From a virus (Duplodnaviria; Heunggongvirae; Uroviricota; Caudoviricetes): a stretch of 36,125 nucleotides of DNA. How positions within the stretch are numbered: the stretch's first letter is position 1; each line of letters starts with the position of its first letter. The notes below the pieces were generated by a model. It saw only the letters and a list, made by a program, of their open reading frames with translations. It was not told the origin of the DNA and did not search any database. Location of the stretch: IMG/VR virus record IMGVR_UViG_2651869781_000013, one strand, 5' to 3'. This document shows positions 935 through 36,125 of the stretch, piece by piece. The position numbers were made by a program, and so were the translations under genes.

Positions 935-2620
935 GTGAATATAAACGTCGCCGAATTGTTAAATGGGAATTACATTCTGTTATTATTTGTGGTCCTCGCG
1001 CTTGGGCTATGTCTCGGGAAATTACGACTTGGTTCGATCCAACTGGGTAATTCCATTGGCGTTTTAGTCGTATCGCTGTTATTAGGCCAACAACATTTCA
1101 GCATTAACACCGACGCGCTTAATCTTGGCTTTATGCTGTTTATTTTCTGCGTCGGGGTCGAAGCCGGACCGAACTTTTTTTCCATTTTTTTTCGCGATGG
1201 GAAAAATTACCTAATGTTAGCACTGGTGATGGTTGGCAGTGCGCTGGTGATCGCCTTAGGGTTAGGTAAGCTGTTTGGCTGGGATATTGGCCTGACGGCC
1301 GGTATGTTAGCTGGCTCTATGACGTCGACACCGGTTCTGGTCGGTGCTGGCGATACACTGCGTCATTCCGGCATGGAAAGCAGGCAGCTCTCACTGGCAC
1401 TGGATAATCTGAGCCTCGGGTATGCCTTAACCTATTTAATCGGTCTGGTGAGTTTGATTGTTGGTGCGCGTTACTTGCCGAAATTGCAGCATCAGGACTT
1501 ACAGACCAGCGCCCAGCAAATCGCCCGCGAACGTGGTCTGGACACTGATGCCAACCGTAAGGTTTATTTACCGGTGATCCGCGCCTACCGCGTCGGCCCG
1601 GAGCTGGTGGCCTGGACCGACGGCAAAAATCTGCGTGAACTGGGTATTTATCGACAAACTGGCTGCTACATTGAACGTATTCGACGTAACGGGATTCTGG
1701 CGAATCCAGACGGTGATGCTGTGCTACAAATGGGCGATGAAATAGCGTTGGTAGGCTATCCCGACGCCCACGCACGACTCGATCCCAGCTTCCGTAACGG
1801 CAAAGAAGTTTTCGATCGTGACCTTCTCGACATGCGTATCGTCACTGAAGAAGTGGTCGTTAAAAACCATAACGCCGTGGGCAAACGTCTCGCACAACTG
1901 AAGTTGACCGATCACGGTTGCTTCCTTAACCGCGTCATTCGTAGCCAGATTGAGATGCCGATAGATGACAACGTCGTGCTTAACAAAGGTGACGTTTTAC
2001 AAGTCAGCGGCGATGCCCGTCGCGTAAAAACCATCGCCGATCGCATCGGCTTTATCTCGATTCACAGCCAGGTCACTGACTTGCTGGCATTCTGCGCCTT
2101 CTTTGTTATTGGGCTGATGATCGGGATGATCACCTTCCAGTTCAGCACATTCAGTTTCGGCATGGGGAACGCTGCCGGGTTGTTATTCGCCGGAATTATG
2201 CTGGGATTTATGCGCGCTAACCACCCGACCTTCGGTTACATTCCGCAGGGTGCATTAAGCATGGTGAAAGAGTTCGGCTTAATGGTGTTTATGGCAGGCG
2301 TTGGTCTGAGCGCCGGTAGCGGTATTAATAACGGCCTGGGCGCGATTGGCGGTCAGATGTTGATTGCCGGATTGATTGTCAGTCTTGTGCCAGTGGTTAT
2401 CTGTTTCTTGTTCGGTGCTTATGTATTGCGAATGAACCGCGCACTGTTGTTCGGCGCAATGATGGGCGCACGCACCTGCGCGCCGGCAATGGAGATCATC
2501 AGTGATACAGCTCGCAGTAACATCCCGGCGCTGGGCTATGCGGGCACCTATGCAATCGCCAACGTCCTGCTGACGCTGGCAGGGACAATCATCGTCATGG
2601 TATGGCCAGGATTAGGATAA
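935..2620 (+). CDS. ybjL: putative AAE-family transporter YbjL
   Basis: 561-aa polytopic membrane protein with hydrophobic N- and C-terminal halves around a central soluble region, as in YbjL/YidE; apparent GTG start; host synteny. Confidence 0.8.
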
Positions 2621-2732
2621 AACTGAAGTTGCCCTGAAAATGAAATTTTTTTGCACAACCGCAGAACTTTTCCGCAGGGCATCAGTCTTAATTAGTGCCA
2701 CTGCTTTTCTTTGATGTCCCCATTTTGTGGAG

Positions 2733-2779
2733 CCCATCAACCCCGCCATTTCGGTTCAAGGTTGATGGGTTTTTTGTTG
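2733..2779 (+). terminator. rho-independent terminator downstream of ybjL
   Basis: Inverted repeat cccatcaacc / ggttgatggg (2733-2742 and 2760-2769) followed by a T-run tttttt (2770-2775). Confidence 0.5.
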
Positions 2780-2833
2780 CCTGAAATTTATGCTGTTTAA
2801 AATCATGATGTTAGAAGCACTGTTTTTTAACGA

Positions 2834-2855
2834 TGGCGACAAAATGGCGGCAGCG
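2834..2855. repeat. attR core (prophage right junction)
   Basis: 21/22 identity with 36086-36107; lies immediately after the ogr stop codon, where attP sits in P2. Confidence 0.7.
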
Positions 2856-3074
2856 TCAAAGAGAGAGCGCCACCTGCCCTGATTTCATTGGATGCGGCTG
2901 AACCGGATTTGACTCTTTTGGCGTTGCAATCGAACGAACAAAAGTTTCATGGGTAACAAAAGTATGGCTGCAGTTAATGTTCTGGCACTGGTTGTAACGC
3001 TCTTTGGTCAATGAAGATACCTGAAAACTGCTGCGAGTATGGGCGGCACTTCCACACAGTGGGCAAATCATCAT
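2856..3074 (-). CDS. ogr: late-gene transcription activator Ogr (zinc finger)
   Basis: 72 aa from ATG at 3074 (MMICPLCGSAAHTR...CQNINCSHTF) with CxxC...CxxxxC; RBS GGGGAG upstream; the ORF-track start at 3107 is a GTG extension. Confidence 0.85.
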   Translation of the reverse strand: MMICPLCGSAAHTRSSFQVSSLTKERYNQCQNINCSHTFVTHETFVRSIATPKESNPVQPHPMKSGQVALSL

Positions 3075-19362: not shown

Positions 19363-20013
19363 TCAGCGGCTGTCATTGCGCAGTCTGCGCTCCAGCTGCT
19401 GTTTGTCTTTTTTCACGCCACAGCGAGGATCGAGCTGTAACGCATGGTTGAGATGATTAAGGGCGGAAGCCGGGTTGCTTTCACTCAGGACAGCGCCAAT
19501 CGCTTTATGCAGACGCGCCCGTGACTGGTCCGGCATATCCAGATCGTCTGTCAGCTCCAGCGTCTGCAGCAACAGATCGGCATCAAAGCCGGTGGCGGCA
19601 AGCATTGCGCTCTGCGCCGCGTCTGCCATTTCCTCTGCCAGCACGGTCTGCACGTTGCGGTTACCCAGCGGCATCACCCAGCCATGACGCAGGGCATGAC
19701 GCCCGATCTCCAGCGCCCCTGCATAATCTCCGGCATCAATGCGCCACAGCATCACGTACATCAGCACGTCATCCTGTTGAGCGCCTCCGGCAGCCAGAAC
19801 GCCCTCCGCCCAGGCGGCATATTTCGGCAGCAGCTCCACCTTGATTTCCGCTTTTTTGACCGTGGACTGAACGCCCTTGAGACGGCGGCGGTCTTCCGCC
19901 AGTTGCAGCAGCATCAGGTCATAGCCCGACGCGTGGCGAACACTGCCACCCTCGCGAGCGGCCTGTTCAGCCTGAACGCGCAGGCGATGCTGCCGTGCGG
20001 GACTCAGGCTCAT
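19363..20013 (-). CDS. M: terminase small/endonuclease subunit gpM
   Basis: 216 aa, ATG; follows N as in P2. Confidence 0.8.
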   Translation of the reverse strand: MSLSPARQHRLRVQAEQAAREGGSVRHASGYDLMLLQLAEDRRRLKGVQSTVKKAEIKVELLPKYAAWAEGVLAAGGAQQDDVLMYVMLWRIDAGDYAGALEIGRHALRHGWVMPLGNRNVQTVLAEEMADAAQSAMLAATGFDADLLLQTLELTDDLDMPDQSRARLHKAIGAVLSESNPASALNHLNHALQLDPRCGVKKDKQQLERRLRNDSR

Positions 20014-22067: not shown

Positions 22068-23834
22068 ATGAACACCACACTGACACCCGCAGATCTCGAT
22101 CCCCGTCGGCAGGCCATGCTGCTGTACTTTCAGGGATACCGCGTCGCCCGCATTGCTGAAATGCTGGGAGAGAAAGTTGCAACCGTTCACAGCTGGAAAA
22201 AACGCGACAAGTGGGGTGACTATGGGCCGCTGGATCAGATGCAGCTCACCACCGCCGCACGCTACTGCCAGCTCATTATGAAGGAGCACAAAGAAGGGAA
22301 AGATTTCAAAGAGATTGACCTGCTGGCGCGCCAGTCTGAACGCCACGCGCGGATCGGCAAGTTTAACAATGGCGGCAACGAAGCCGACTTAAACCCTAAC
22401 GTCGCCAACCGTAACAAAGGCCCGCGCCGTCAGCCGGAAAAGAACGTTTTCACCGATGAACAGATTGAGAAGCTGGAAGAAATCTTCCATTCCTCCATGT
22501 TCAACTACCAGCGCCACTGGTGGGAAGCCGGAAAAACCAACCGCATCCGCAACCTGCTGAAGTCACGCCAGATCGGCGCGACCTTCTATTTTGCCCGTGA
22601 AGCCCTGATTGACGCCCTGCTAACCGGGCGTAACCAGATTTTCCTTTCCGCCAGCAAGGCTCAGGCCCACGTCTTTAAGCAGTACATCATCGACTTCGCC
22701 AAAGAAGTGGAGGTGGAGCTGAAAGGCGATCCGATGGTGCTTCCTAACGGGTCCACGCTTTACTTCCTCGGCACCAATGCCCGCACTGCCCAGAGTTATC
22801 ACGGCAACCTGTATCTGGATGAATATTTCTGGATACCGAAATTCCAGGAGCTGCGCAAAGTGGCTTCCGGTATGGCTATTCACAAGAAATGGCGACAAAC
22901 CTATTTTTCCACGCCATCCAGCCTGACTCATAGTGCTTATCCGTTCTGGTCCGGTGCGCTGTTCAACCGTGGGCGCAACAAAGCCGATAAGGTGGACATC
23001 GACCTGTCCCACAGCAATCTTGCCCCCGGCCAGCTGTGCGCCGACGGGCAATACCGCCAGATAGTCACCGTGGAAGATGCGGTGCGCAGCGGCTGTAACC
23101 TGTTCGACCTTGACCAGTTGCGCATGGAGTACAGCCCGGACGAATACCAGAACCTGCTAATGTGCGAGTTTGTTGACGATCTCGCGTCCGTGTTTCCGCT
23201 CAGCGAGCTGCAGGCGTGCATGGTGGACAGTTGGGAAGTCTGGACCGACTTTCATGCTCTGGCCCTGCGCCCATTTGGCTGGCGCGAAGTGTGGATCGGT
23301 TATGACCCGGCAAAAGGTACGCAGAACGGCGACAGCGCCGGATGCGTGGTGGTGGCACCGCCAGCCGTGCCAGGCGGTAAGTTTCGCATTCTTGAGCGTC
23401 ACCAGTGGCGCGGGATGGACTTCCGTGCCCAGGCGGACGCAATCAAAAAACTGACCGAGCAGTACAACGTGACCTACATCGGCATCGACTCAACCGGCGT
23501 TGGTCACGGGGTTTACGAGAACGTGAAAGCGTTCTTTCCTGCCGTCCGGGAGTTTGTCTACAACCCCAACGTTAAAAACGCCCTGGTACTCAAGGCCTAC
23601 GACATTATCAGCCACCGCCGTCTGGAGTTTGACGCCGGACACACCGACATAGCGCAGTCATTCATGGCAATCCGTCGCTCCACCACCGCCAGTGGCAACC
23701 GCCCGACCTATGAAGCCAGCCGCAGCGAAGAAGCCAGCCACGCCGATCTGGCATGGGCAACGATGCACGCACTGTTTAACGAACCGCTGCAGGGCGAATC
23801 CGCCAATACCAGCAATATTGTGGAGATTTTTTGA
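22068..23834 (+). CDS. P: terminase large (ATPase) subunit gpP
   Basis: 588 aa; recalled similarity to P2 gpP. Confidence 0.9.
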   Translation: MNTTLTPADLDPRRQAMLLYFQGYRVARIAEMLGEKVATVHSWKKRDKWGDYGPLDQMQLTTAARYCQLIMKEHKEGKDFKEIDLLARQSERHARIGKFNNGGNEADLNPNVANRNKGPRRQPEKNVFTDEQIEKLEEIFHSSMFNYQRHWWEAGKTNRIRNLLKSRQIGATFYFAREALIDALLTGRNQIFLSASKAQAHVFKQYIIDFAKEVEVELKGDPMVLPNGSTLYFLGTNARTAQSYHGNLYLDEYFWIPKFQELRKVASGMAIHKKWRQTYFSTPSSLTHSAYPFWSGALFNRGRNKADKVDIDLSHSNLAPGQLCADGQYRQIVTVEDAVRSGCNLFDLDQLRMEYSPDEYQNLLMCEFVDDLASVFPLSELQACMVDSWEVWTDFHALALRPFGWREVWIGYDPAKGTQNGDSAGCVVVAPPAVPGGKFRILERHQWRGMDFRAQADAIKKLTEQYNVTYIGIDSTGVGHGVYENVKAFFPAVREFVYNPNVKNALVLKAYDIISHRRLEFDAGHTDIAQSFMAIRRSTTASGNRPTYEASRSEEASHADLAWATMHALFNEPLQGESANTSNIVEIF

Positions 23835-24868
23835 TGGGAAAGAGTAAGAAAAACCGCGCAGCGGCGATGAATCAGATCCAGCATAAAAGCCAGACTTCAG
23901 CCGAAGCATTCAGCTTCGGCGATCCCGTTCCTGTTCTGGACCGTCGCGAACTGCTGGACTATGTGGAATGCGTACAGATGGACCGCTGGTATGAGCCGCC
24001 TGTGAGTTTCGACGGCCTGGCGCGAACATTCCGCGCCGCCGTACACCACAGTTCACCGATTGCAGTAAAGTGCAACATTCTGACCAGCACCTATATCCCT
24101 CACCCGCTGCTCAGCCAGCAGGCTTTTTCACGTTTTGTGCAGGACTATCTGGTATTTGGTAACGCCTACCTGGAGAAACGCACGAACCGCTTCGGTGAAG
24201 TTATCGCCCTTGAACCTGCGCTGGCAAAATACACCCGACGCGGGTTAGATCTGGATACCTACTGGTTTGTGCAATACGGCATGACTACGCAGCCGTATCA
24301 TTTCACGAAAGGCAGCATCTTTCATCTGATGGAACCGGATATCAACCAAGAGATCTACGGCCTGCCCGGTTATCTTTCTGCCATTCCGTCAGCCCTGCTC
24401 AACGAGTCCGCCACGTTGTTCCGCCGTAAGTATTACATCAACGGCAGCCATGCAGGCTTCATCATGTACATGACCGATGCCGCGCAGAATCAGGAGGATG
24501 TGAACAACCTCCGCAACGCGATGAAAAGCGCCAAAGGTCCAGGCAACTTCCGCAACCTGTTTATGTACTCACCTAACGGCAAAAAAGACGGGCTTCAGAT
24601 CATCCCATTGTCAGAAGTCGCGGCGAAGGATGAATTTCTTAACATCAAGAACGTGAGTCGGGATGACATGATGGCAGCGCACCGCGTACCGCCGCAAATG
24701 ATGGGGATTATGCCGAATAATGTTGGGGGGTTTGGGGATGTCGAAAAGGCGAGTCATGTATTTGTTCGTAACGAGTTAATTCCATTACAAAAAAGGCTAA
24801 TTGAATTAAATGAATGGCTTAATGACGAAATTATTCGTTTTGACGAATATAAATTAGGCAATACTTGA
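23834..24868 (+). CDS. Q: portal protein gpQ
   Basis: 344 aa from ATG 23834 overlapping the P stop, RBS GGAG; ORF-track start at 23831 is TTG. Confidence 0.85.
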   Translation: MGKSKKNRAAAMNQIQHKSQTSAEAFSFGDPVPVLDRRELLDYVECVQMDRWYEPPVSFDGLARTFRAAVHHSSPIAVKCNILTSTYIPHPLLSQQAFSRFVQDYLVFGNAYLEKRTNRFGEVIALEPALAKYTRRGLDLDTYWFVQYGMTTQPYHFTKGSIFHLMEPDINQEIYGLPGYLSAIPSALLNESATLFRRKYYINGSHAGFIMYMTDAAQNQEDVNNLRNAMKSAKGPGNFRNLFMYSPNGKKDGLQIIPLSEVAAKDEFLNIKNVSRDDMMAAHRVPPQMMGIMPNNVGGFGDVEKASHVFVRNELIPLQKRLIELNEWLNDEIIRFDEYKLGNT

Positions 24869-24877
24869 TTAAAGCCT

Positions 24878-24911
24878 GTTTAAACTGGCTGTCGGAACAG
24901 CCAGTTTAAAC
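24878..24911. terminator. palindrome, probable bidirectional terminator between Q and the cargo operon
   Basis: Perfect 14-bp arms GTTTAAACTGGCTG / CAGCCAGTTTAAAC around a 6-nt loop; overlaps the stop codon of ORF 24906..25754. Confidence 0.5.
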
Positions 24912-25754
24912 ACCGGCACCAATGAAATCGCCATATGAATCTTCTTCAAGGCTGATGTATTCTACCCTCCATTGATCCATCCGCCTCAATGCATACAGGG
25001 AGAAATGAGTATCAGCAACAGCTATGCACGTATTCAATTCTATAAGTTCTGAATGCCCCAAGGTTGGATCACCATAAAACTTATAAAACAAAGCCTTTAG
25101 ATCAGAACATGTTTGTTCAGCCGCTCTTCTGGCATCGGGGCCACCTTCAGTTGCATCATAAACAACATTGATAGAAAGCTCATATGGTATGCCTTCCTCA
25201 AGATCGTTAAATCTTTCTTCGCCCAAATCGAAAAAAACTCCGATCAAATGCTCTGCGTTTGTGGCGATAATATCCGCAACTTCTTTTTCGAAAATAAACT
25301 TTTTATCCTCGTCGTAAGCCCGCAAGCGCTCTTCAAACGAGTTAGGAAACGCTGGACGACCATACTTAGCAGCTAACCATTGCTTAAGAGCTTGTTTCTC
25401 TTCTGTGCTAATGGAGAATGCTGGATCGTTTTCCTCACAACAGAAAGCTTCTTTAGGAAAGATGACTTTCCTTTCATGCCGGAGCTCTACTGCATTCTTC
25501 TTCGCACTTTCTGGGTTTTCAAAACATAGATCGAGTATTCTCGGATGCTTAGCTCTTTTCATCCTGCTTGACCCCTTTTTCAAGGGGCCAAACATCAGTT
25601 CCACGTTTTTTTCTGAATTACTCTGTAAATCACAATCATGCGTTATAACTACAACTTTATGGTTCGTTTCATCAGGCTGCAGAATTCCAAGTGAAACGGC
25701 ATCATCATGTTTAAGTACATGCCCCTGACGCCATGATGTTCCTCGTACCAACAT
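24906..25754 (-). CDS. cargo operon gene 3, hypothetical protein
   Basis: 282 aa, ATG 9 nt after the gene 2 stop; AT-rich; no Walker A, HEXXH or other motif recognised. Confidence 0.55.
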   Translation of the reverse strand: MLVRGTSWRQGHVLKHDDAVSLGILQPDETNHKVVVITHDCDLQSNSEKNVELMFGPLKKGSSRMKRAKHPRILDLCFENPESAKKNAVELRHERKVIFPKEAFCCEENDPAFSISTEEKQALKQWLAAKYGRPAFPNSFEERLRAYDEDKKFIFEKEVADIIATNAEHLIGVFFDLGEERFNDLEEGIPYELSINVVYDATEGGPDARRAAEQTCSDLKALFYKFYGDPTLGHSELIELNTCIAVADTHFSLYALRRMDQWRVEYISLEEDSYGDFIGAGV

Positions 25755-25763
25755 AAATGTGAT

Positions 25764-26426
25764 TTATTCCTCTACCGTTCCAGGAATTGAAATAGATGAC
25801 TTCCAATCATCTGTCGGTTTCGCCTTGCTTGCTAAGTAATTGGCCGATTCAGCAGCAGCATTCATCGCTTTAGCTTCATCAATCAATACCTGAACTGCCC
25901 TATTCCAATCCTCACCTTCTTTTACTACGTCCATTAATGACTTACCATTAAATGCTTTCATTTTCACCAATAGCTTCGCATCATGGAGTCCAGCTTTGGA
26001 AAAAGAGTCAGCGACATTACTAAGGTTGATAATGAATTGCACTTTTGAAGCATCATCAGGCTGGTTCTCCCCTGACAACCATTTATAGAGAGCCTGCCGA
26101 GTTATCCCCAAATCCTTTGCCAGTTCTGACATTGATGGAGACAGCACTTCTCGAATATTAGCTAAATGTTGGGCAACATTCCTGACATCAACCTCAGGAG
26201 AAATTGCAGGCGTGTACGTTGATTCTATGGAATCAAATGCAAACTGAACCCTTGGCTGAACATACTGACGCCATTGCTTATAAGCATTTACAGGGTATGA
26301 AGCCCCCGTACCAACTAATAGTAAAGATGCGGCGACAGCAACAACACCTGATACACATGAGCTTGACTGCAAATTTGGAGAATATCGATCTACAGAGCCT
26401 ATGCTTCCGGTGGGAATTGCATACAT
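25764..26426 (-). CDS. cargo operon gene 2, HTH (XRE-type) protein with N-terminal hydrophobic segment
   Basis: 220 aa from ATG 26426 with RBS GGAGGT, 20 nt after the gene 1 stop; HTH SMSELAKDLGITRQALYKWLSGE; hydrophobic stretch VSGVVAVAASLLLVGTGA. Confidence 0.6.
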   Translation of the reverse strand: MYAIPTGSIGSVDRYSPNLQSSSCVSGVVAVAASLLLVGTGASYPVNAYKQWRQYVQPRVQFAFDSIESTYTPAISPEVDVRNVAQHLANIREVLSPSMSELAKDLGITRQALYKWLSGENQPDDASKVQFIINLSNVADSFSKAGLHDAKLLVKMKAFNGKSLMDVVKEGEDWNRAVQVLIDEAKAMNAAAESANYLASKAKPTDDWKSSISIPGTVEE

Positions 26427-26445
26427 TTTAGTCACCTCCGTTGTT

Positions 26446-27255
26446 TCAGTGCCATTTAGTACGGGCAAAATCTGAAACCATGCCTTCAAATGCTTCTTTA
26501 ACTTTACTATGCAACGAAAGAATCTGTTTTTCAATTAACTGCAAATCAGTTGACATGTTGCCTTCAACATAATGATCTGTATCAATTATTGCGTGCATAC
26601 GATGCTCTGTGTTACTAAATCTCGGCAACGGCAGTAAACCATTAGGAATCATATCTGGCGGAAAACCTAGCTGACCATTCATCTTATGTATTCGTGAAAC
26701 CATAAATCCATTAGGGATCAATGGCTCAACACGTGTCTGATATACGGACTCTTGTATAGACTGTATTGGCGTCCATCCGAAATCAACACCATGAAGTTCC
26801 TTTACAAGATACTGCTCAATTGTTTCGCTTTTCTCAGGAAACACAGCATCCAAATATCGAAGCCCAATCCGACTTAACAGCGATGGCTTAGCAAATTCTA
26901 GAACTTTGCTCAGACCAAGTATCAATGACGAGATGAAAGATACATGGTTATCATAATATGTTGTATGGAACGTAATGAAATCGTTGCCTAAAACAAAACC
27001 AGATCTTCTATCTGCATCAATCATCAACCAACTTGTCACAGGCTCAAATGAATGTACCGGTGGCTCATTGGGGTTTTTTATTTCAAATTTCAACTGAGTT
27101 GTATTGGAAACCTCAAATAAAGGAAATCCCTCAACTCTTAGCGCATCTTGTATGTCTGGAACATACTTACTCATTGCAGCTATTGGAGTAAACTTTACCT
27201 GTACCAATGCATAGTAAACGGGCGCATTGGACATACGTTCGCTGTTAGTACTCAT
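26446..27255 (-). CDS. cargo operon gene 1, hypothetical protein (possibly TIGR04255-like, unverified)
   Basis: 269 aa, ATG with strong RBS AGGAGG; AT-rich; N-terminus MSNAPVYYALVQVKF resembles a recalled family signature; no catalytic motif recognised. Confidence 0.6.
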   Translation of the reverse strand: MSTNSERMSNAPVYYALVQVKFTPIAAMSKYVPDIQDALRVEGFPLFEVSNTTQLKFEIKNPNEPPVHSFEPVTSWLMIDADRRSGFVLGNDFITFHTTYYDNHVSFISSLILGLSKVLEFAKPSLLSRIGLRYLDAVFPEKSETIEQYLVKELHGVDFGWTPIQSIQESVYQTRVEPLIPNGFMVSRIHKMNGQLGFPPDMIPNGLLPLPRFSNTEHRMHAIIDTDHYVEGNMSTDLQLIEKQILSLHSKVKEAFEGMVSDFARTKWH

Positions 27256-27395
27256 GCCGCCCTCCTTGAAATTGTTTCATCTCATATCTCTTTATCTTAC
27301 TAACTGTAGTTTACACATAGGTTGACACTTTCTCCATCATTAAGTTCACTATGACATCAATAGCCAAAACTCTTACGTAATCGCTTCGGCGCGCG

Positions 27396-27414
27396 CTCGT
27401 ATCCCCGCCACGCC
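27396..27414. other. probable cos site (cohesive end)
   Basis: Minus strand reads GGCGTGGCGGGGATACGAG; first 13 nt match my recollection of the 186/P2 19-nt cohesive ends; GC-rich block in a 360-bp non-coding interval. Confidence 0.45.
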
Positions 27415-27617
27415 TGCCCGCTTTATGTAGTGGTTTTCATGCACCTGCATGATCTACGCAAAAGCCCGCCAGTTCTGGCAGGCCTTAGCAAAAACGATCC
27501 TCAAACGATCATGCGATCTCATGCGGCATAGACATGCACCACAGAGCTAACGCCTCGCACAGCTCGTTGTTCAACCTTGCTGACGCCAGAAGCAAGTTCA
27601 GACGCCAGCAACGTTTC

Positions 27618-27851
27618 TTAATGCAGCCAGCTGTCGTCTTCCCACACCTTCTGCATAATTTTCATCACTTGTTTTCTTTCTTCGTCCAGTTGAAGTCCGG
27701 TCAGTTCCACACCGTTAGAGCTACCTTTGCGGATACGAATTACCGTTTTGGGATACAGGGGGCGCAGATTGCGGTAAAGCTCGGATTCAAGGGCGTCCAG
27801 TGTAGACTGGCTAACCTTCTGCTCTTTATCGATCATTATTTCAATGCGCAT
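27618..27851 (-). CDS. DinI-family protein (Tum C-terminal-like)
   Basis: 77 aa from ATG 27851 (MRIEIMIDKEQKVSQSTLDALESEL...WEDDSWL) with RBS GAGGTG; resembles recalled DinI. Confidence 0.7.
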   Translation of the reverse strand: MRIEIMIDKEQKVSQSTLDALESELYRNLRPLYPKTVIRIRKGSSNGVELTGLQLDEERKQVMKIMQKVWEDDSWLH

Positions 27852-27861
27852 AAAAGTCACC

Positions 27862-28050
27862 TCAGCTGATGACATCCATTGAGCGGTTGTATTCGTGGGT
27901 TCTGATTTTTGCCATGAGTTCATCTGTCAGTTCAGAAACCCACTGCAGGGCCAGCCCCTTCTCTTCATCACTACACTCACTAGCCGCTACAAGCTTAAGA
28001 AAAAAATCAATGCGCTGGAGCTTCAAAGACTCCAAAAAATAGTCCTGCAT
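27862..28050 (-). CDS. small protein, possible Tum-like antirepressor N-terminal module
   Basis: 62 aa, strong RBS AGGAGG; first gene after a LexA-boxed promoter; assignment by position only. Confidence 0.45.
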   Translation of the reverse strand: MQDYFLESLKLQRIDFFLKLVAASECSDEEKGLALQWVSELTDELMAKIRTHEYNRSMDVIS

Positions 28051-28092
28051 CTTTCCTCCTATGACACCAAAGCAATACTGTATACATAACCA

Positions 28093-28108
28093 CTGTTTAT
28101 ATTTACAG
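28093..28108. promoter_or_regulatory. LexA box (SOS box) overlapping a sigma70-like promoter
   Basis: CTGTTTATATTTACAG (CTGT-N8-ACAG); on the minus strand flanked by TTTACA (-35-like) and TATACT (-10-like); half-site TACTGTATAC at about 28078-28087. Confidence 0.65.
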
Positions 28109-28202
28109 TATATAATAATCTTACTGATGTAAAACGTTTTTTTATGCTCATCAGCCTGATATGCCTGGTATTATTAAGAGCACGAATTGTTAACCCGCGT
28201 AA

Positions 28203-30617
28203 TTAATACAGGTTTCGCCACTTATCATCTTCCTGCAAACGCTGGTTCCGATAGAAGATACGCAGGCCTGCTCCTGACGGAATACTGCCGCCGCGAAGCA
28301 GTAAATCGACCTCTTTCTCGCTGCCATCAAATCCCCTGGACTTCAGTTCATACACGAGCTGCTGTCGCTGATGATCTGTAATTCGCTGTTTGTAGTCTTT
28401 ACGCCGTTTCGGTTTTACAAGGCGTAACCTTGCTGCCAGTTCCCGGCGCTCTTTTTTGCTCATACTGTGCAGGTAATCGTGCAACTCCTTGTCATCCATG
28501 CGGGTGATATCCGTTCTGGTATCTCCATCAGCTGATTTGTCTTTCCCTTGTTGGTACAAATTTTCAGCAAGGGGACAGTTATTGCCACGAGTCCAAGGGG
28601 CGCAAGCGCCCTGGTCGGCTGCCGCCTCCTGAACGTCAACGGCTTTACGAACCATTTTCCACTTCACTGCATGAGTGCAGATCTTGCCCTCTGCAATGGG
28701 TGACCAGATGCCATAAATACGAATGCCGTGATCGCCATAGGCGGTCGGCTCTTCGTTGATTTCATAAGCGGTTCTGATGAGGTGATATTTACGGGGAACC
28801 AGTACGCCGCCCTGCTTCATGATGTAGGTGGCAAAACAACCAGCATCAGCAGCAGCCAGAATGGCATCAAGACGCGGGTTATCCAGTACCGGCGCACCTG
28901 CTTTTTTGTCACCCTGTTGCCTTGCCGCCTGACCAGCCAGCAAGCGAAGTTCACGGTAAGCCTGACGCCCCGGAATACCAAAGAAGCGGAATTGCTGAAC
29001 ACGATGCAGAGACGCCCAGGCATTCACGTATTCAGCGTTATCACGCAGAGATTTACCCGTTTCCTTGCTGATCTCGCCAGCCAGACCACGACCGTCAATG
29101 TTCTTACTGATATATTTCGCGATGTAGCTTGTCGGCGTTCCTTTGCGCGGGTTAATCAACTCAGACTTAAAGCGCGGCCCAGTGTTATTGCCCAGCTCCT
29201 CGCGGTCTTCACGAATGGCAAACTTACGCAGTAATGCAGTGATGGCACGGCGGTCTTTTTTGCGCATGAAACACAACAGGTGCCAGTGAACTGTGCCATC
29301 ATGATGCGGCTCAGCCACCCGCACGCCATACCAGCGCAACCCGGCTTTGTGCATCGCCTTACGAAATGCAGCAAACATGCCGACCAGATAATCGCTGCTT
29401 TGTCTTACCGTCGCGTTTGTCCAGGTCGGGTTTGGTCTGCCGTTATTTAGCGTGGAATGGAAACGCGACGGACAGGTGATAGTGTAGAAAACGGCGCAGT
29501 CACCGCGCATTTCCGCGATAAGCTCCAGACCTTTAACACAGGCCATCATCTCATTGCGGCGATGCGCAGGGTTGCTGCTGCTGGCGTTTACCACATCCTC
29601 CATGTCCAGCGTGTCGCCGTCTTCGTTCACCAGTTCATGAGAACGGAAAAACTCCAGCGACTTACGGCGCTGCTCACGTTTATGCAACACGGCTTCATAG
29701 CTGACATAGGGAGATGCTTTTTTGCTGACAAGGCAGACAGCACGCAACTGCTCTTCCCGCCATTCGCAACGCATCTTCCATAATTTCCGATACCACCAGT
29801 CGGCGCACAACATACGCGCCAGCGAACCCGGAATGAGTTCATAGGGCACGGGTTTACGGCGGTTTCTTTTCCGACGGAGTTGCTCAAACGCAGGCGGGAT
29901 TACATCCAGACGCAGGGTTTTCGCTGCCACCCTTTCCCATGTATTGCGGATTTCTTCTGGCTTAACGTCATCGGTGGCATACAAATCGCCACAAGCGGCA
30001 TCAAGGCACATACTCATATGCGCAGCTACCAGGGTGGACAGGCGTTTCACCTGATCCTGACTCATTTCAGGCAGGAACAGCAGGCCGTCCAGCCCTTCAT
30101 GGCTTGCCATAAAGCGAAAAGATGCAGATAGCTGACTGTCGCGTACATGCTCCAGTCGTTCCAGACATGGCTTAATCGTCTCACGTAAATAGCGGGAATA
30201 AGCCTTTGGCCTGCCAAGGCTGCTGAAGTATTCAATACGTTGCATCAGCGGCTTGCTGATATGGGAAGGCTGGGCGTTGACGTCCGCCAGAATGACCATA
30301 TCCGGATTAAAACGCTGCTGCTCATGCACCAGCTTTGCCCGACTAATGAGCTTATCCTGTTCCATTTCGCGCTGGACAGGATCACGGGATTCATTAAAGA
30401 AATAACGCTCCCAGACCTGATCACTCAGCGCCTCACGGCGCAGCTGTTCCTGCTCGTTATCGGCAGCGTACAGAGTGATCAGGTTTGAAAGCGTAGAAAC
30501 CGGCGCAACTTCCACCGGGTCCAGATAAGGGTTAATGGCCTTTTTCGGGCTGTTCCATGAGAACGATGCGGCAGCTTCGTTAAAGCCGCAGCAGTTGTTC
30601 ATATCGGCATGACTCAT
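28203..30617 (-). CDS. A: replication initiation protein gpA (rolling-circle nickase family)
   Basis: 804 aa; contains [12 protein letters not shown]-type motif; positioned as in P2/186. Confidence 0.85.
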
Positions 30618-31471
30618 GCACGTACTCCGTACACGGCAGAACTATCCACGCCACGCGAATAATCAAATCCCACCCAGCAGCGCGGCCCGGAAACAGCAAT
30701 GATTTCTGTTGCTGATTTACCCTCGCCAGCTGCCACACCGATGCTGCGTTTTGCCTTGATGTAGTGGTGAGTAAAATTGCGATACAGCGAACGGATCAGG
30801 GATGTGTCACTGTTAGAAACAATGACCGGATGTCCTTCTGATGACCGATGTTCAAGAACAGATGCCAGGTGATACTGGTCATCTTCAGTGAAGCCGTCAG
30901 TGTGATAGCCGGAAAACGTACCGTCATACGGCGGATCGCAATACACCACATCCCCCGCCTTCAACATCGCCAGCGTTTCATCAAAGCTGGCGCAGATAAA
31001 CGTTGCTCGCTGGGCCTTTTCTGCAAATGCGCGAATTTCTTTTTCAGGGAAATACGGATTTTTATAATTACCGTAGGGAATGTTGAAATGCCCGCTCTTG
31101 TTATAGCGACATAAACCACGGTAACCGTGACGATTGAGATACAGGAAATATACCGCTTTCATGAAATCAGTAATTTCAGTGGAGTAATTAAACTCCTGCC
31201 TTATGTTGTAATAAGCCACCTCCCTGTTTGCGATCTCAAATAAAACTCTGGCGCGAGATATAAACGATTCACAATCAGCGGCAACCTTTTTATAGAGGTT
31301 GATTAAATCAGGATTAATATCCGCAACCAGATAGCTGGGGTAATCCGTCTCCATCATCACAGCACAGGAACCCGCGAAAGGTTCAACCAGTCGCGGGCCA
31401 GCAGGAAGGTGTTTTTTCAGTTCGGACATAATGGCGGTTTTATTTCCCGCCCATTTCAGGATGGTGCTCAT
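30614..31471 (-). CDS. DNA N6-adenine methyltransferase (Dam-like)
   Basis: 285 aa from ATG 31471; motifs LKWAGNK (SAM binding) and DPPY; stop overlaps the A start. Confidence 0.8.
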
Positions 31472-34360: not shown

Positions 34361-35392
34361 ATGGCAGTACGAAAACTCACCACAGGAAAATGGCTTTGCG
34401 AATGTTACCCCGCCGGACGTAGTGGGCGTCGTGTGCGTAAACAATTCGCCACCAAAGGCGAAGCACTGGCTTTTGAGCGTCACACGATGGAAGAAACCGA
34501 AGCAAAGCCCTGGCTGGGCGAATCAGTAGATCGTCGAACCCTGAAAGACGTGGTTGAGCTATGGTTCAAACTACATGGTAAATCTCTGACTGCTGGGCAG
34601 CATGTCTATGACAAATTGCTGCTGATGGTTGACGCTCTGGGCAATCCCCTTGCAACCGATCTCACATCTAAAATGTTTGCCCATTATCGAGATAAACGAC
34701 TGACAGGTGAGATCTACTTCAGCGAGAAATGGAAGAAAGGGGCCAGCCCGGTCACCATTAACCTGGAGCAAAGCTATCTAAGTAGTGTTTTTAGCGAACT
34801 ATCCCGCCTGGGCGAATGGTCGTATCCAAACCCACTGGAGAACATGCGAAAATTCACCATCGCAGAAAAAGAGATGGCATGGCTTACCCATGAGCAGATT
34901 GTTGAACTGCTGGATGATTGCAAACGTCAGGACCCAATTCTGGCACTGGTAGTCAAGATATGCTTAAGCACAGGCGCACGCTGGCGAGAAGCAATAAACC
35001 TTACCCGATCACAGGTGACCAAATACCGAATTACCTTTGTAAGAACGAAGGGGAAGAAAAACAGAAGCATCCCTATCAGTAAAGAGCTTTATGAAGAGAT
35101 CATGGCGCTTGATGGGTTCAATTTCTTCACAGACTGCTATTTTCAATTTTTATCCGTGATGGAAAAAACGTCTATCGTGCTCCCTCGCGGTCAACTTACA
35201 CACGTTCTGCGTCATACGTTTGCGGCGCATTTCATGATGTCGGGTGGAAACATCCTTGCTTTGCAAAAAATCCTCGGACATCACGACATAAAAATGACTA
35301 TGCGTTATGCTCATCTATCACCTGATCACTTAGAGACAGCTCTTCGTTTCAATCCACTAGCAACTTTGGATGTTACTAAATCAGATTCTTAA
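34361..35392 (+). CDS. int: tyrosine integrase (P2/186 family)
   Basis: 343 aa from ATG 34361; C-terminal motifs R...HxLRHT...Y (LTHVLRHTFA ... MTMRYAHL); adjacent to attL. Confidence 0.85.
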   Translation: MAVRKLTTGKWLCECYPAGRSGRRVRKQFATKGEALAFERHTMEETEAKPWLGESVDRRTLKDVVELWFKLHGKSLTAGQHVYDKLLLMVDALGNPLATDLTSKMFAHYRDKRLTGEIYFSEKWKKGASPVTINLEQSYLSSVFSELSRLGEWSYPNPLENMRKFTIAEKEMAWLTHEQIVELLDDCKRQDPILALVVKICLSTGARWREAINLTRSQVTKYRITFVRTKGKKNRSIPISKELYEEIMALDGFNFFTDCYFQFLSVMEKTSIVLPRGQLTHVLRHTFAAHFMMSGGNILALQKILGHHDIKMTMRYAHLSPDHLETALRFNPLATLDVTKSDS

Positions 35393-35402
35393 AGGTTCAA
35401 GC

Positions 35403-36125
35403 ATGGTTAAGTTTTTGTTTCAATTCCCAATATTCGACTTCTCCTTAACATTTGATATTATCGAGACGTTAATCACTCATAGCGAATCATCAATCGCTAA
35501 GGGTATAGCAGAATATAAAGACAAAGGACCTGAAGAATATATAATTGAAATATCTCCGGAAGATGGTGTATATCAGTCAATTGATCATTACATGGGACTC
35601 ACCAGCTCATCGCTAGATCTCGATGAAATGTTTTTAGAATACTACCCAAGTATTATCCGCAGGTCAGTATTCTTAACTATATTCGGAATTTTTGAGCACG
35701 AAATAGAAAAATTCTGTAACAACTTTGCTAATAGACATCATTCTCCTATAAATGTTTCAGATCTCAAAGGAAGTGGATTTGAGAGGAGTCATCTATTTAT
35801 CAAAAAAATGATAGGGATGAAGTCAACATCCCACTATTCGAATATCAAAAAAATAACAAAATTAAGAAACAGTTGTGCGCATAATGATGCAAAATACTTA
35901 GAAAACGATGGGCAAAATATTAAAAGCATTATTGAACTTATAGAAAAATATCCTGATTTTTTTAAAAAAGATGGAAAACAGGTCCTATTTATGGAGGGCT
36001 CGTTAAGCATGATCTTGAACTCATTCAAAGAGTATCTTTCTGATGTTGAAAGAGCCTTAGATGAATTCGAAAAACAAAGCACTAGTGGCGACAAAGTGGC
36101 GGCAGCGGTTGGCATTACCCCGTAA
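35403..36125 (+). CDS. hypothetical AT-rich cargo protein with possible HEPN Rx4H motif
   Basis: 240 aa from ATG 35403 (alternative ATG 35370 inside the int 3' end); motif KLRNSCAHN; last about 13 codons cross the attL core. Confidence 0.45.
   Translation: MVKFLFQFPIFDFSLTFDIIETLITHSESSIAKGIAEYKDKGPEEYIIEISPEDGVYQSIDHYMGLTSSSLDLDEMFLEYYPSIIRRSVFLTIFGIFEHEIEKFCNNFANRHHSPINVSDLKGSGFERSHLFIKKMIGMKSTSHYSNIKKITKLRNSCAHNDAKYLENDGQNIKSIIELIEKYPDFFKKDGKQVLFMEGSLSMILNSFKEYLSDVERALDEFEKQSTSGDKVAAAVGITP
36086..36107. repeat. attL core (prophage left junction)
   Basis: TGGCGACAAAGTGGCGGCAGCG, 21/22 identical to 2834-2855. Confidence 0.7.

Follow-up and report, generated by a model that had tools for sequence, protein, structure and literature searches.

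The locus and its genes

The window, by which we mean the whole stretch of 36,125 nucleotides analysed here, contains an interval of 362 bp at 27256-27617 that is bounded by the stop codon of a DinI-like gene (27618) and by the start codon of the first gene of a three-gene cargo (27255). The earlier note had taken this interval to be non-coding, and the matching RefSeq stretch of strain IH5 indeed carries no annotated CDS there. The RefSeq genome of IH5 is 100% identical to the window over 24869-27395 and near-identical beyond. The gene order in the window is A, a 62-aa ORF, DinI, the putative cos site, the cargo and Q. The genes and gene-associated features are the following.

19363..20013, minus strand: gpM, small terminase, presumed cos-recognition subunit (phrog_74, E=9e-89)
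22068..23834, plus strand: gpP, large terminase (Pfam Terminase_6N, Terminase_6C, Terminase_5)
23834..24868, plus strand: gpQ, portal, left anchor of the hotspot; the 19-mer reads on the other strand, an arrangement also seen in P2 and 186 (Pfam Phage_portal)
24885..24904, no strand assigned: hairpin CTGGCTGTCGGAACAGCCAG flanked by A/T runs (folds at -13.7 and -13.9 kcal/mol on the two strands, z = -3.7 and -3.3)
24906..25754, minus strand: cargo gene 3, hypothetical protein of 282 aa (phrog_34320, E=3e-7; PHROG annotation: unknown function)
25764..26426, minus strand: cargo gene 2, helix-turn-helix (HTH) transcriptional regulator of 220 aa (Pfam HTH_3; phrog_8, E=4e-15; start as in RefSeq)
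26446..27255, minus strand: cargo gene 1, TIGR04255-family protein of 269 aa (NCBIfam TIGR04255, E=1.7e-52; RefSeq)
27256..27387, minus strand: lineage-specific leader of the cargo operon, with no conservation in other cos-bearing contigs
27618..27851, minus strand: DinI-like/TumB-like gene, 77 aa, last gene at the right genome end (Pfam DinI, E=1.3e-22; phrog_189, E=4e-29)
27862..28050, minus strand: 62-aa ORF that opens the LexA-controlled operon, in the position of TumA (phrog_698, E=4e-38; PHROG annotation: unknown function)
28093..28108, no strand assigned: LexA box CTGTTTATATTTACAG ahead of the 62-aa ORF; CTGT-N8-ACAG has no other exact match in the window
28203..30617, minus strand: gpA, replication endonuclease, right anchor of the hotspot (Pfam Phage_GPA, E=6e-127)

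Open reading frames of full length are present for P, Q, M, N (major capsid), A, an integrase, CI, a Cox/Apl-like and an Ogr-like protein. The prophage adjoins ybjL. Over the whole window, the best matches reach about 97% identity. A search for tRNA genes within the window gave none, and regions 2600-3000 and 35300-36125 have no exact repeat of 12 nt or more in common, so that att sites were not located.

The 19-mer and the known cohesive ends

Read from 27414 to 27396 on the minus strand, the interval contains the 19-mer GGCGTGGCGGGGATACGAG, letter for letter as it had been written in the earlier note. There it had been compared with the ends of P2 and 186, given as beginning GGCG[A/T]GGCGGGGA. 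This agrees with GenBank, where bases 1-19 are annotated as cos in P2 (NC_001895; GGCGAGGCGGGGAAAGCAC, the P4 19-mer being the same) and in 186 (NC_001317) and PSP3 (NC_005340; both GGCGTGGCGGGGAAAGCAT). Compared with these published sites, the window 19-mer has the start GGCG[A/T]GGCGGGGA in common with P2 and 186 and is identical at 15/19 positions to 186 and PSP3 and at 14/19 to P2 and P4. Positions 1-13 equal those of 186 and PSP3, and the differences fall at positions 14, 16, 17 and 19, so that the overhang tail reads ATACGAG in the window and AAAGCAT in the two Eganvirus genomes. Other published variants are related: that of Smp131 ends in ...AGACGAG and those of SEN4 and SEN5 end in ...GAACGAG.

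Within the 36 kb window the 13-mer GGCGWGGCGGGGA is matched exactly at one place only, 27402-27414 on the minus strand, and it was found in 0 of 100 dinucleotide-preserving shuffles. Allowing up to two mismatches adds three further matches in the window, which is chance level (1.42 expected). The similarity extends to a 55-bp core of the P2-family cos, credited to Ziermann and Calendar (1990) in passages of PMC5694545 and PMC3931495. Over this core the window is identical to 186 at 44/55 positions, to PSP3 at 45/55, to P2 at 42/55 and to P4 at 43/55; as a scale, P2 and 186 are identical to each other at 48/55.

The exact 19-mer has been recorded before. The record of Salmonella phage SEN8 (NC_047753) opens with exactly this sequence, labelled 'putative cos site', and the SEN8 genome announcement prints the cos site as ggcgtggcggggatacgag, identified during annotation without end sequencing (PMC5427200). 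In Escherichia phage Cartapus an annotated 59-bp feature, 'putative cos site, homologous to the cos of P2', includes the 19-mer, and in Fels-2 and Yersinia phage vB_YpM_MLG42 it is present with near-identical flanks. Thus, SEN8, Fels-2 (Felsduovirus), Cartapus and MLG42 (Elveevirus) have in common with the window an identical 19-mer, a near-identical right flank, the CGCGCGC after the cut and a cos position between DinI/gpA and gpQ. They differ from it in that each has another cargo between cos and Q, and in the sources read their cos sites are annotation-based. When phage records and metagenomic contigs were searched for sequences ending exactly at the 19-mer, SEN8 was the only one, and no IMG/VR contig end coincided with the site.

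An asymmetric conserved island around the 19-mer

A scan of IMG/VR for the exact 19-mer returned at least 120 loci, of which 111 unique viral sequences were used to measure conservation in an ungapped alignment anchored on the 19-mer. Since the 19-mer was the search key, its own conservation in such contig sets is given by construction and only the flanks are independent evidence. These flanks define an island with the following parts.

27388..27541, minus strand: conserved cos island (~153 bp), composed of cosN, 7 bp to its left and a cosB-like flank on the right-end side (conservation in 111 contigs)
27389..27443, minus strand: counterpart of the 55-bp P2-family cos core, made up of 29 bp toward the right end, the 19-mer and CGCGCGC
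27396..27414, minus strand: cosN, putative 19-nt cohesive-end sequence GGCGTGGCGGGGATACGAG, same as the SEN8 putative cos, with nicks predicted by homology
27460..27486, minus strand: Rho-independent terminator of the DinI operon, inside the cos island (-21.2 kcal/mol, z = -4.3)
27492..27510, minus strand: direct repeat GATCGTTT in two copies 11 bp apart, within the island (repeat search)
27511..27537, minus strand: three (G/C)(T/C)GCATG(A/T) words spaced by about 10-13 bp, with GCAT at 27537, 27524 and 27514

From -127 to +26 the information content is 1.3-2.0 bits per position. Outside, on both sides, it falls to about 0.1 bits with an identity of 0.25-0.35, which is the random level. The island is strongly asymmetric, with about 127 bp on the right-end (DinI) side and 7 bp on the left (Q) side, and homology to 86 phage records typically stops at window position 27389. 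The ~127 bp are identical at 125/127 positions to copies in other species.

The same asymmetry was seen when the circularised junctions of P2, 186, PSP3 and P4 were aligned with the window, Fels-2 and MLG42. Conservation lies nearly all on the future right genome end and consists of repeated GCAT-containing words, an AAAACC block and AAAGCGGGCA directly before the cut. After the 19-mer only (C/T)GCGCGC is common, and then all genomes diverge. P2 and P4 share this build with the window, the 19-mer being preceded by a conserved right-end flank and followed by GCGCGC. P4 aligns over the same core though it shares nothing else with these phages.

Within the island the GCAT columns are invariant across the window, P2, 186, PSP3, P4, Fels-2 and MLG42. 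Besides the three words listed above, a fourth (G/C)(T/C)GCATG(A/T) word lies inside the core at 27442; CATGCACC occurs twice, at 27438 and 27533, and there is an inverted pair GCATGATC/GATCATGC. The GCATG words are candidate recognition repeats for gpM, the small terminase. The 111 contigs conserve the GATCGTTT repeat, whereas P2, 186 and P4 lack it; judged by these alignments, it is specific to the Fels-2-type lineage. The terminator of the DinI operon has an 11-bp stem followed by UUUU, aligns with the hairpin region of 186 and corresponds in position to t95b, which the 186 annotation places about 160 bp short of the right end. Between 27000 and 28300, an Rfam scan gave nothing meaningful, its sole match being a miRNA at E=0.85.

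Position, polarity and spread

The neighbourhood of the 19-mer is constant in kind and variable in spacing. In every contig that has the portal in range (85/85), a portal homologue is found downstream, on the opposite strand, and in 80/80 contigs a DinI gene is found upstream, on the same strand. The distance from the 19-mer to Q ranges from 148 to 3526 bp (median 1648) and that from DinI to the 19-mer from 205 to 3211 bp. The window has 2527 bp between cos and Q and 203 bp between DinI and cos; cargo fills its left slot, and its right slot has the minimum length. The same polarity of the GGCG strand toward an opposite-strand portal is found in the P2 and 186 records. In both of these the left slot is empty, with 167 bp in P2 and a cos-to-portal distance of 176 bp in 186, in contrast to the 2527 bp of the window. 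P2 instead carries its accessory genes old and tin on the right of cos, and 186 has an extra gene (orf97) there.

In a collection with one genome per species (596 Gb) the 19-mer had 54 exact matches. About 46 of these species-level matches retain the flank and P2-like neighbours, and they come from many genera of the Enterobacterales as well as from Chitinimonas and Pasteurella. In four others, all from unrelated metagenome-assembled genomes, the flank shows no similarity, and about four chance matches are expected.

The terminase follows the same lines of relationship. The window gpM is 95.8% identical to that of SEN8 and 95.4% to that of Fels-2, and 41-42% to those of 186 and P2; for gpP the values are 99.0%, 96.8% and 62%. 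The portal is 83% identical to the SEN8 and Fels-2 portals. As gpM and gpP are far closer to SEN8 and Fels-2, terminase and cos variant co-vary, as they should if the enzyme reads the site.

The left end and its cargo

The earlier note had placed a three-gene cargo between cos and Q. This order holds, and the slot is a published one: the cos-proximal interval between gpA and gpQ is a hotspot of accessory and defence genes in P2-like prophages (Rousset et al. 2022, PMC9122126; NAR 2026, PMC13586616), and it has been suggested that foreign genes are acquired between cosL and gpQ in particular (PMC5694545). The window matches this description with a variable gene set between gpA and gpQ directly beside cos. 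Other genomes have other cargo at the slot: a TIR-domain protein in Escherichia phage 500465-1, a Hypoth_Ymh domain protein in vB_EcoM-813R9, a DUF4145 protein in Cartapus, a hypothetical protein and an HNH endonuclease in SEN8, and a 565-aa hypothetical protein in Fels-2. On the Q side conservation is limited to 7 bp (CGCGCGC), and therefore foreign DNA can be inserted against cos without damage to it. Thus, the asymmetry of cos explains how genes come to be inserted right at the cut site.

Translation of the cargo would start at the ATG at 27255, which is preceded by the Shine-Dalgarno sequence AAGGAGG. A search for a consensus sigma-70 promoter over 27000-28300 found none. At the other end of the operon the hairpin at 24885-24904 is a probable bidirectional terminator between the converging transcripts of Q and the cargo, as judged from its stem and its A/T runs. 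Cargo gene 3 gave no match in Pfam, PADLOC and PDB sequence searches; no PDB sequence relatives were found for genes 1 and 3, the two that were searched, and the PADLOC models gave nothing for the unit beyond weak helix-turn-helix matches. With PADLOC, Pfam and PHROGs applied to all three genes, TIGR04255 and the helix-turn-helix domain were the sole pointers to function. A literature search returned no mention of TIGR04255, and the three-gene unit was not found in the searched supplements of Rousset et al. 2022 (PMC9122126). The unit is intact at the same slot in 5 or 6 of the 120 viral contigs listed, with 91-99.6% amino-acid identity, and occurs in 18/5426 complete E. coli genomes. The cos-adjacent unit might be an uncatalogued anti-phage system; a single estimate covers this idea together with the one on packaging specificity and P4 given below, and on that joint estimate it is rather unlikely.

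The right end

On the other side of cos, the earlier note had proposed an SOS-regulated tum/DinI module. Its position, the LexA box and the DinI gene stand; the label tum holds in part. The DinI-like protein is 77% identical to TumB of PSP3, and its start is most likely at 27851 (77 aa) rather than at the start of the 101-aa ORF, RefSeq also calling a CDS of 234 nt. The LexA box is equivalent in position to the LexA site at 186 p95. The window thus has the right-end layout of 186 and PSP3, with a LexA box, a tum/DinI-type operon and a terminator before cos, and Q/W on the opposite strand after it. Of what marks an SOS operon of the 186/PSP3 type, the LexA box and a DinI-like second gene are present, and an antirepressor homologous to the Tum N-terminus or to TumA was not detected: BLASTP gave no alignment of the 62-aa ORF with PSP3 TumA or 186 Tum. 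The 62-aa ORF may encode an analogous antirepressor fitted to a different CI. The proposal is therefore partly supported. The sequence justifies speaking of an SOS-regulated DinI module, and 'tum' applies as an architectural analogy only.

With the left slot filled and the right one minimal, the cargo is the left-most operon and the LexA-controlled DinI operon the right-most one on the linear genome.

A probable cos site of the Fels-2/SEN8 type

The central claim of the earlier note, that this is cos, is supported by the 19-mer, the 55-bp core, the position and polarity relative to gpQ and gpA, the conserved island and the cognate terminase. We consider it very probable, on these sequence comparisons, that 27388-27541 is the cos of an apparently complete P2-like (Peduoviridae) E. 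coli prophage of the Fels-2/SEN8 type. We infer physical cleavage here by homology, the SEN8 cos being likewise derived from annotation. The overhang length and polarity would be the same as in 186 and PSP3, which have mapped or curated 19-nt ends. The exact nick positions are an extrapolation, because it is in the last third of the 19-mer that the four differences from 186 lie.

By analogy with P2 and 186, gpM/gpP would, after excision and replication, recognise the ~127-bp flank on the DinI side with its GCATG words. Staggered nicks would then be made between 27415 and 27414 on the minus strand and between 27396 and 27395 on the plus strand, a placement that follows the note in the 186 record, 'top strand cut at 5' end, bottom strand cut at 3' end'. 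The product would be virion DNA with 19-nt 5' cohesive ends. Such a mature genome would begin with cosL, followed by the leader (27387-27256), the TIGR04255 gene, the helix-turn-helix regulator, the hypothetical gene, the terminator hairpin, and Q and P on the opposite strand; it would end with gpA, the LexA box, the 62-aa ORF, DinI, the terminator and cosR.

The alternative that deserves most weight, improbable as we judge it, is that the site is a genuine cos homologue that is no longer used, either because the prophage is cryptic or non-inducible or because the site has drifted. P2-like prophages are often defective, IH5 has the same segment of cos plus cargo in a prophage that is truncated at the tail-fibre gene and differs elsewhere, and the borders of the window prophage show neither att repeats nor a tRNA. 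However, the ORFs of the window are full length for P, Q, M, N, A, integrase, CI, Cox/Apl and Ogr, the island is identical at 125/127 positions to copies in other species, and the 19-mer is the same as in SEN8, a phage that was recovered as particles.

Less probable still is that the island has been retained for a role other than packaging, as the DinI terminator together with a regulatory site, and that the true cut lies elsewhere. The strong terminator hairpin within the island fits this idea, and an analysis of conservation alone assigns no function. Yet the island aligns base for base with the mapped ends of P2, 186, PSP3 and P4, P4 has the core although it lacks a DinI operon, the window holds no second match to the cos 13-mer, and past the terminator conservation continues for 45 bp, as far as the 19-mer, and ends 7 bp beyond that. 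That the likeness to cos might be a chance effect of GC-rich sequence has a negligible probability. Exact 19-mers without flank similarity do turn up in the four unrelated metagenome-assembled genomes mentioned above, but the 13-mer appeared in none of the shuffles, and the full flank, the right synteny and the cognate terminase accompany the window copy; flank and synteny already refute chance resemblance. A cos site of the Fels-2/SEN8 type therefore remains our reading of 27388-27541.

This finding is correct but ordinary, because both the exact site and the variable cargo slot had already been described, and the current understanding of P2-like phages is unchanged by it. It fixes the coordinate origin of the mature genome of this prophage. 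It also places the three-gene cargo in a known cos-proximal accessory slot and so gives a context to the cargo operon, itself of greater interest than the site. Furthermore, the 111 contigs document the asymmetry of the Fels-2-type cos, with ~127 bp on one side against 7 bp on the other.

The cos variant and P4-like satellites

Around the approximately 170 loci that bear the ATACGAG variant we found no psu, sid, delta or alpha gene nearby, and among 80 P4-like satellite loci, all encoding Psu, the variant occurred in 0/80. These 80 loci all carry P2/186-like cos variants (GGCGAGGCGGGGAAAGCAC in 60, GGCGTGGCGGGGAGAGCAT in 9, and others), with tails of the form ...A[A/G]AGCA[C/T]. The ATACGAG cos and the divergent gpM (about 42% identical to those of P2 and 186) might form a packaging-specificity class apart, one that classical P4-like satellites do not exploit. 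This idea shares its low estimate with the anti-phage reading of the cargo, and we hold the two, taken jointly, to be doubtful. If it were true, the Fels-2-type phages would have escaped P4 piracy through an altered packaging signal.

The cargo unit beside cos

The slot between cos and the portal gene gpQ is occupied by three genes that move together as a block, and a hairpin separates them from gpQ.

24906-27255, minus strand: cargo unit of a TIGR04255-family protein, a helix-turn-helix regulator and a 282-aa hypothetical protein
24885-24904: hairpin CTGGCTGTCGGAACAGCCAG, with a 9-bp stem and A/T runs on either side

We consider the unit to be a candidate accessory or defence system that is so far uncatalogued. 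PADLOC returned no match for it, a PDB sequence search with its first and third genes gave none either, and TIGR04255 came up nowhere in the literature searched. The identical cos-adjacent slot carries the unit in five to six of the 120 viral contigs listed with the exact cos 19-mer (91-99.6% amino acid identity), and a search of 5426 complete E. coli genomes found it in 18. In E. coli IH5 (L139, NZ_CP168949 2743683-2779807) the cos-plus-cargo segment is 100% identical to the window over 2.5 kb. The IH5 prophage is truncated at the tail-fibre gene, where it adjoins hemB, and hence the cargo has been kept in a defective remnant. The portal gene and the cargo operon converge on the hairpin, which is probably a bidirectional terminator.

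The LexA-boxed operon and the cos island

Four features lie on the other side of the cargo.

27862-28050, minus strand: 62-aa ORF, first gene of the LexA-boxed operon (phrog_698, unknown function)
27618-27923, minus strand: 101-aa extended DinI ORF, mechanical call
27534-27869, plus strand: 111-aa ORF spanning the cos island, mechanical call
27492-27510: direct repeat GATCGTTT, two copies at a spacing of 11 bp, within the conserved cos island

The 62-aa ORF holds the position of TumA in the operon, although similarity to PSP3 TumA and 186 Tum was not detectable; its counterpart in some relatives is only about 47% identical. It may be an antirepressor fitted to a different CI. Relatives and RefSeq back only the 77-aa DinI gene (27851-27618), not the 111-aa and 101-aa ORFs.

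Both copies of GATCGTTT contain a GATC (Dam) site. The repeat is kept across the Fels-2-type lineage; P2, 186 and P4 are without it. The prophage itself encodes a Dam methylase (about 30614-31471).

Related cos sites

The exact enterobacterial-type 19-mer was also found in Chitinimonas sp. BJB300 (L221, L222, L226, L227, L251) and C. taiwanensis (L230, L254, L265), a single betaproteobacterial genome bearing it on five to six of its contigs. CGCGCGC is present at these sites, with a flank core of 19-22/29. Two of the contigs are small (6.0 and 6.3 kb) and of high coverage; on these, a gene resembling gpA (29% identity) follows cos, 872 bp downstream. Taken together, the contigs may point to several P2-like elements, or to small satellites that carry cos.

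Among the P4-like satellites (L140-L219) the cos 19-mer follows psu by about 167 bp, and none has the Fels-2-type ending ATACGAG. Positions 5, 13-14 and 19 of their 19-mers are variable, as in GGCGTGGCGGGGAGAGCAT and GGCGTGGCGGGGGGAGCAT.

On one contig, IMGVR_UViG_2558860442_000001, a copy of the 19-mer of ATACGAG type accompanies a satellite that has an AGAGCAT cos.
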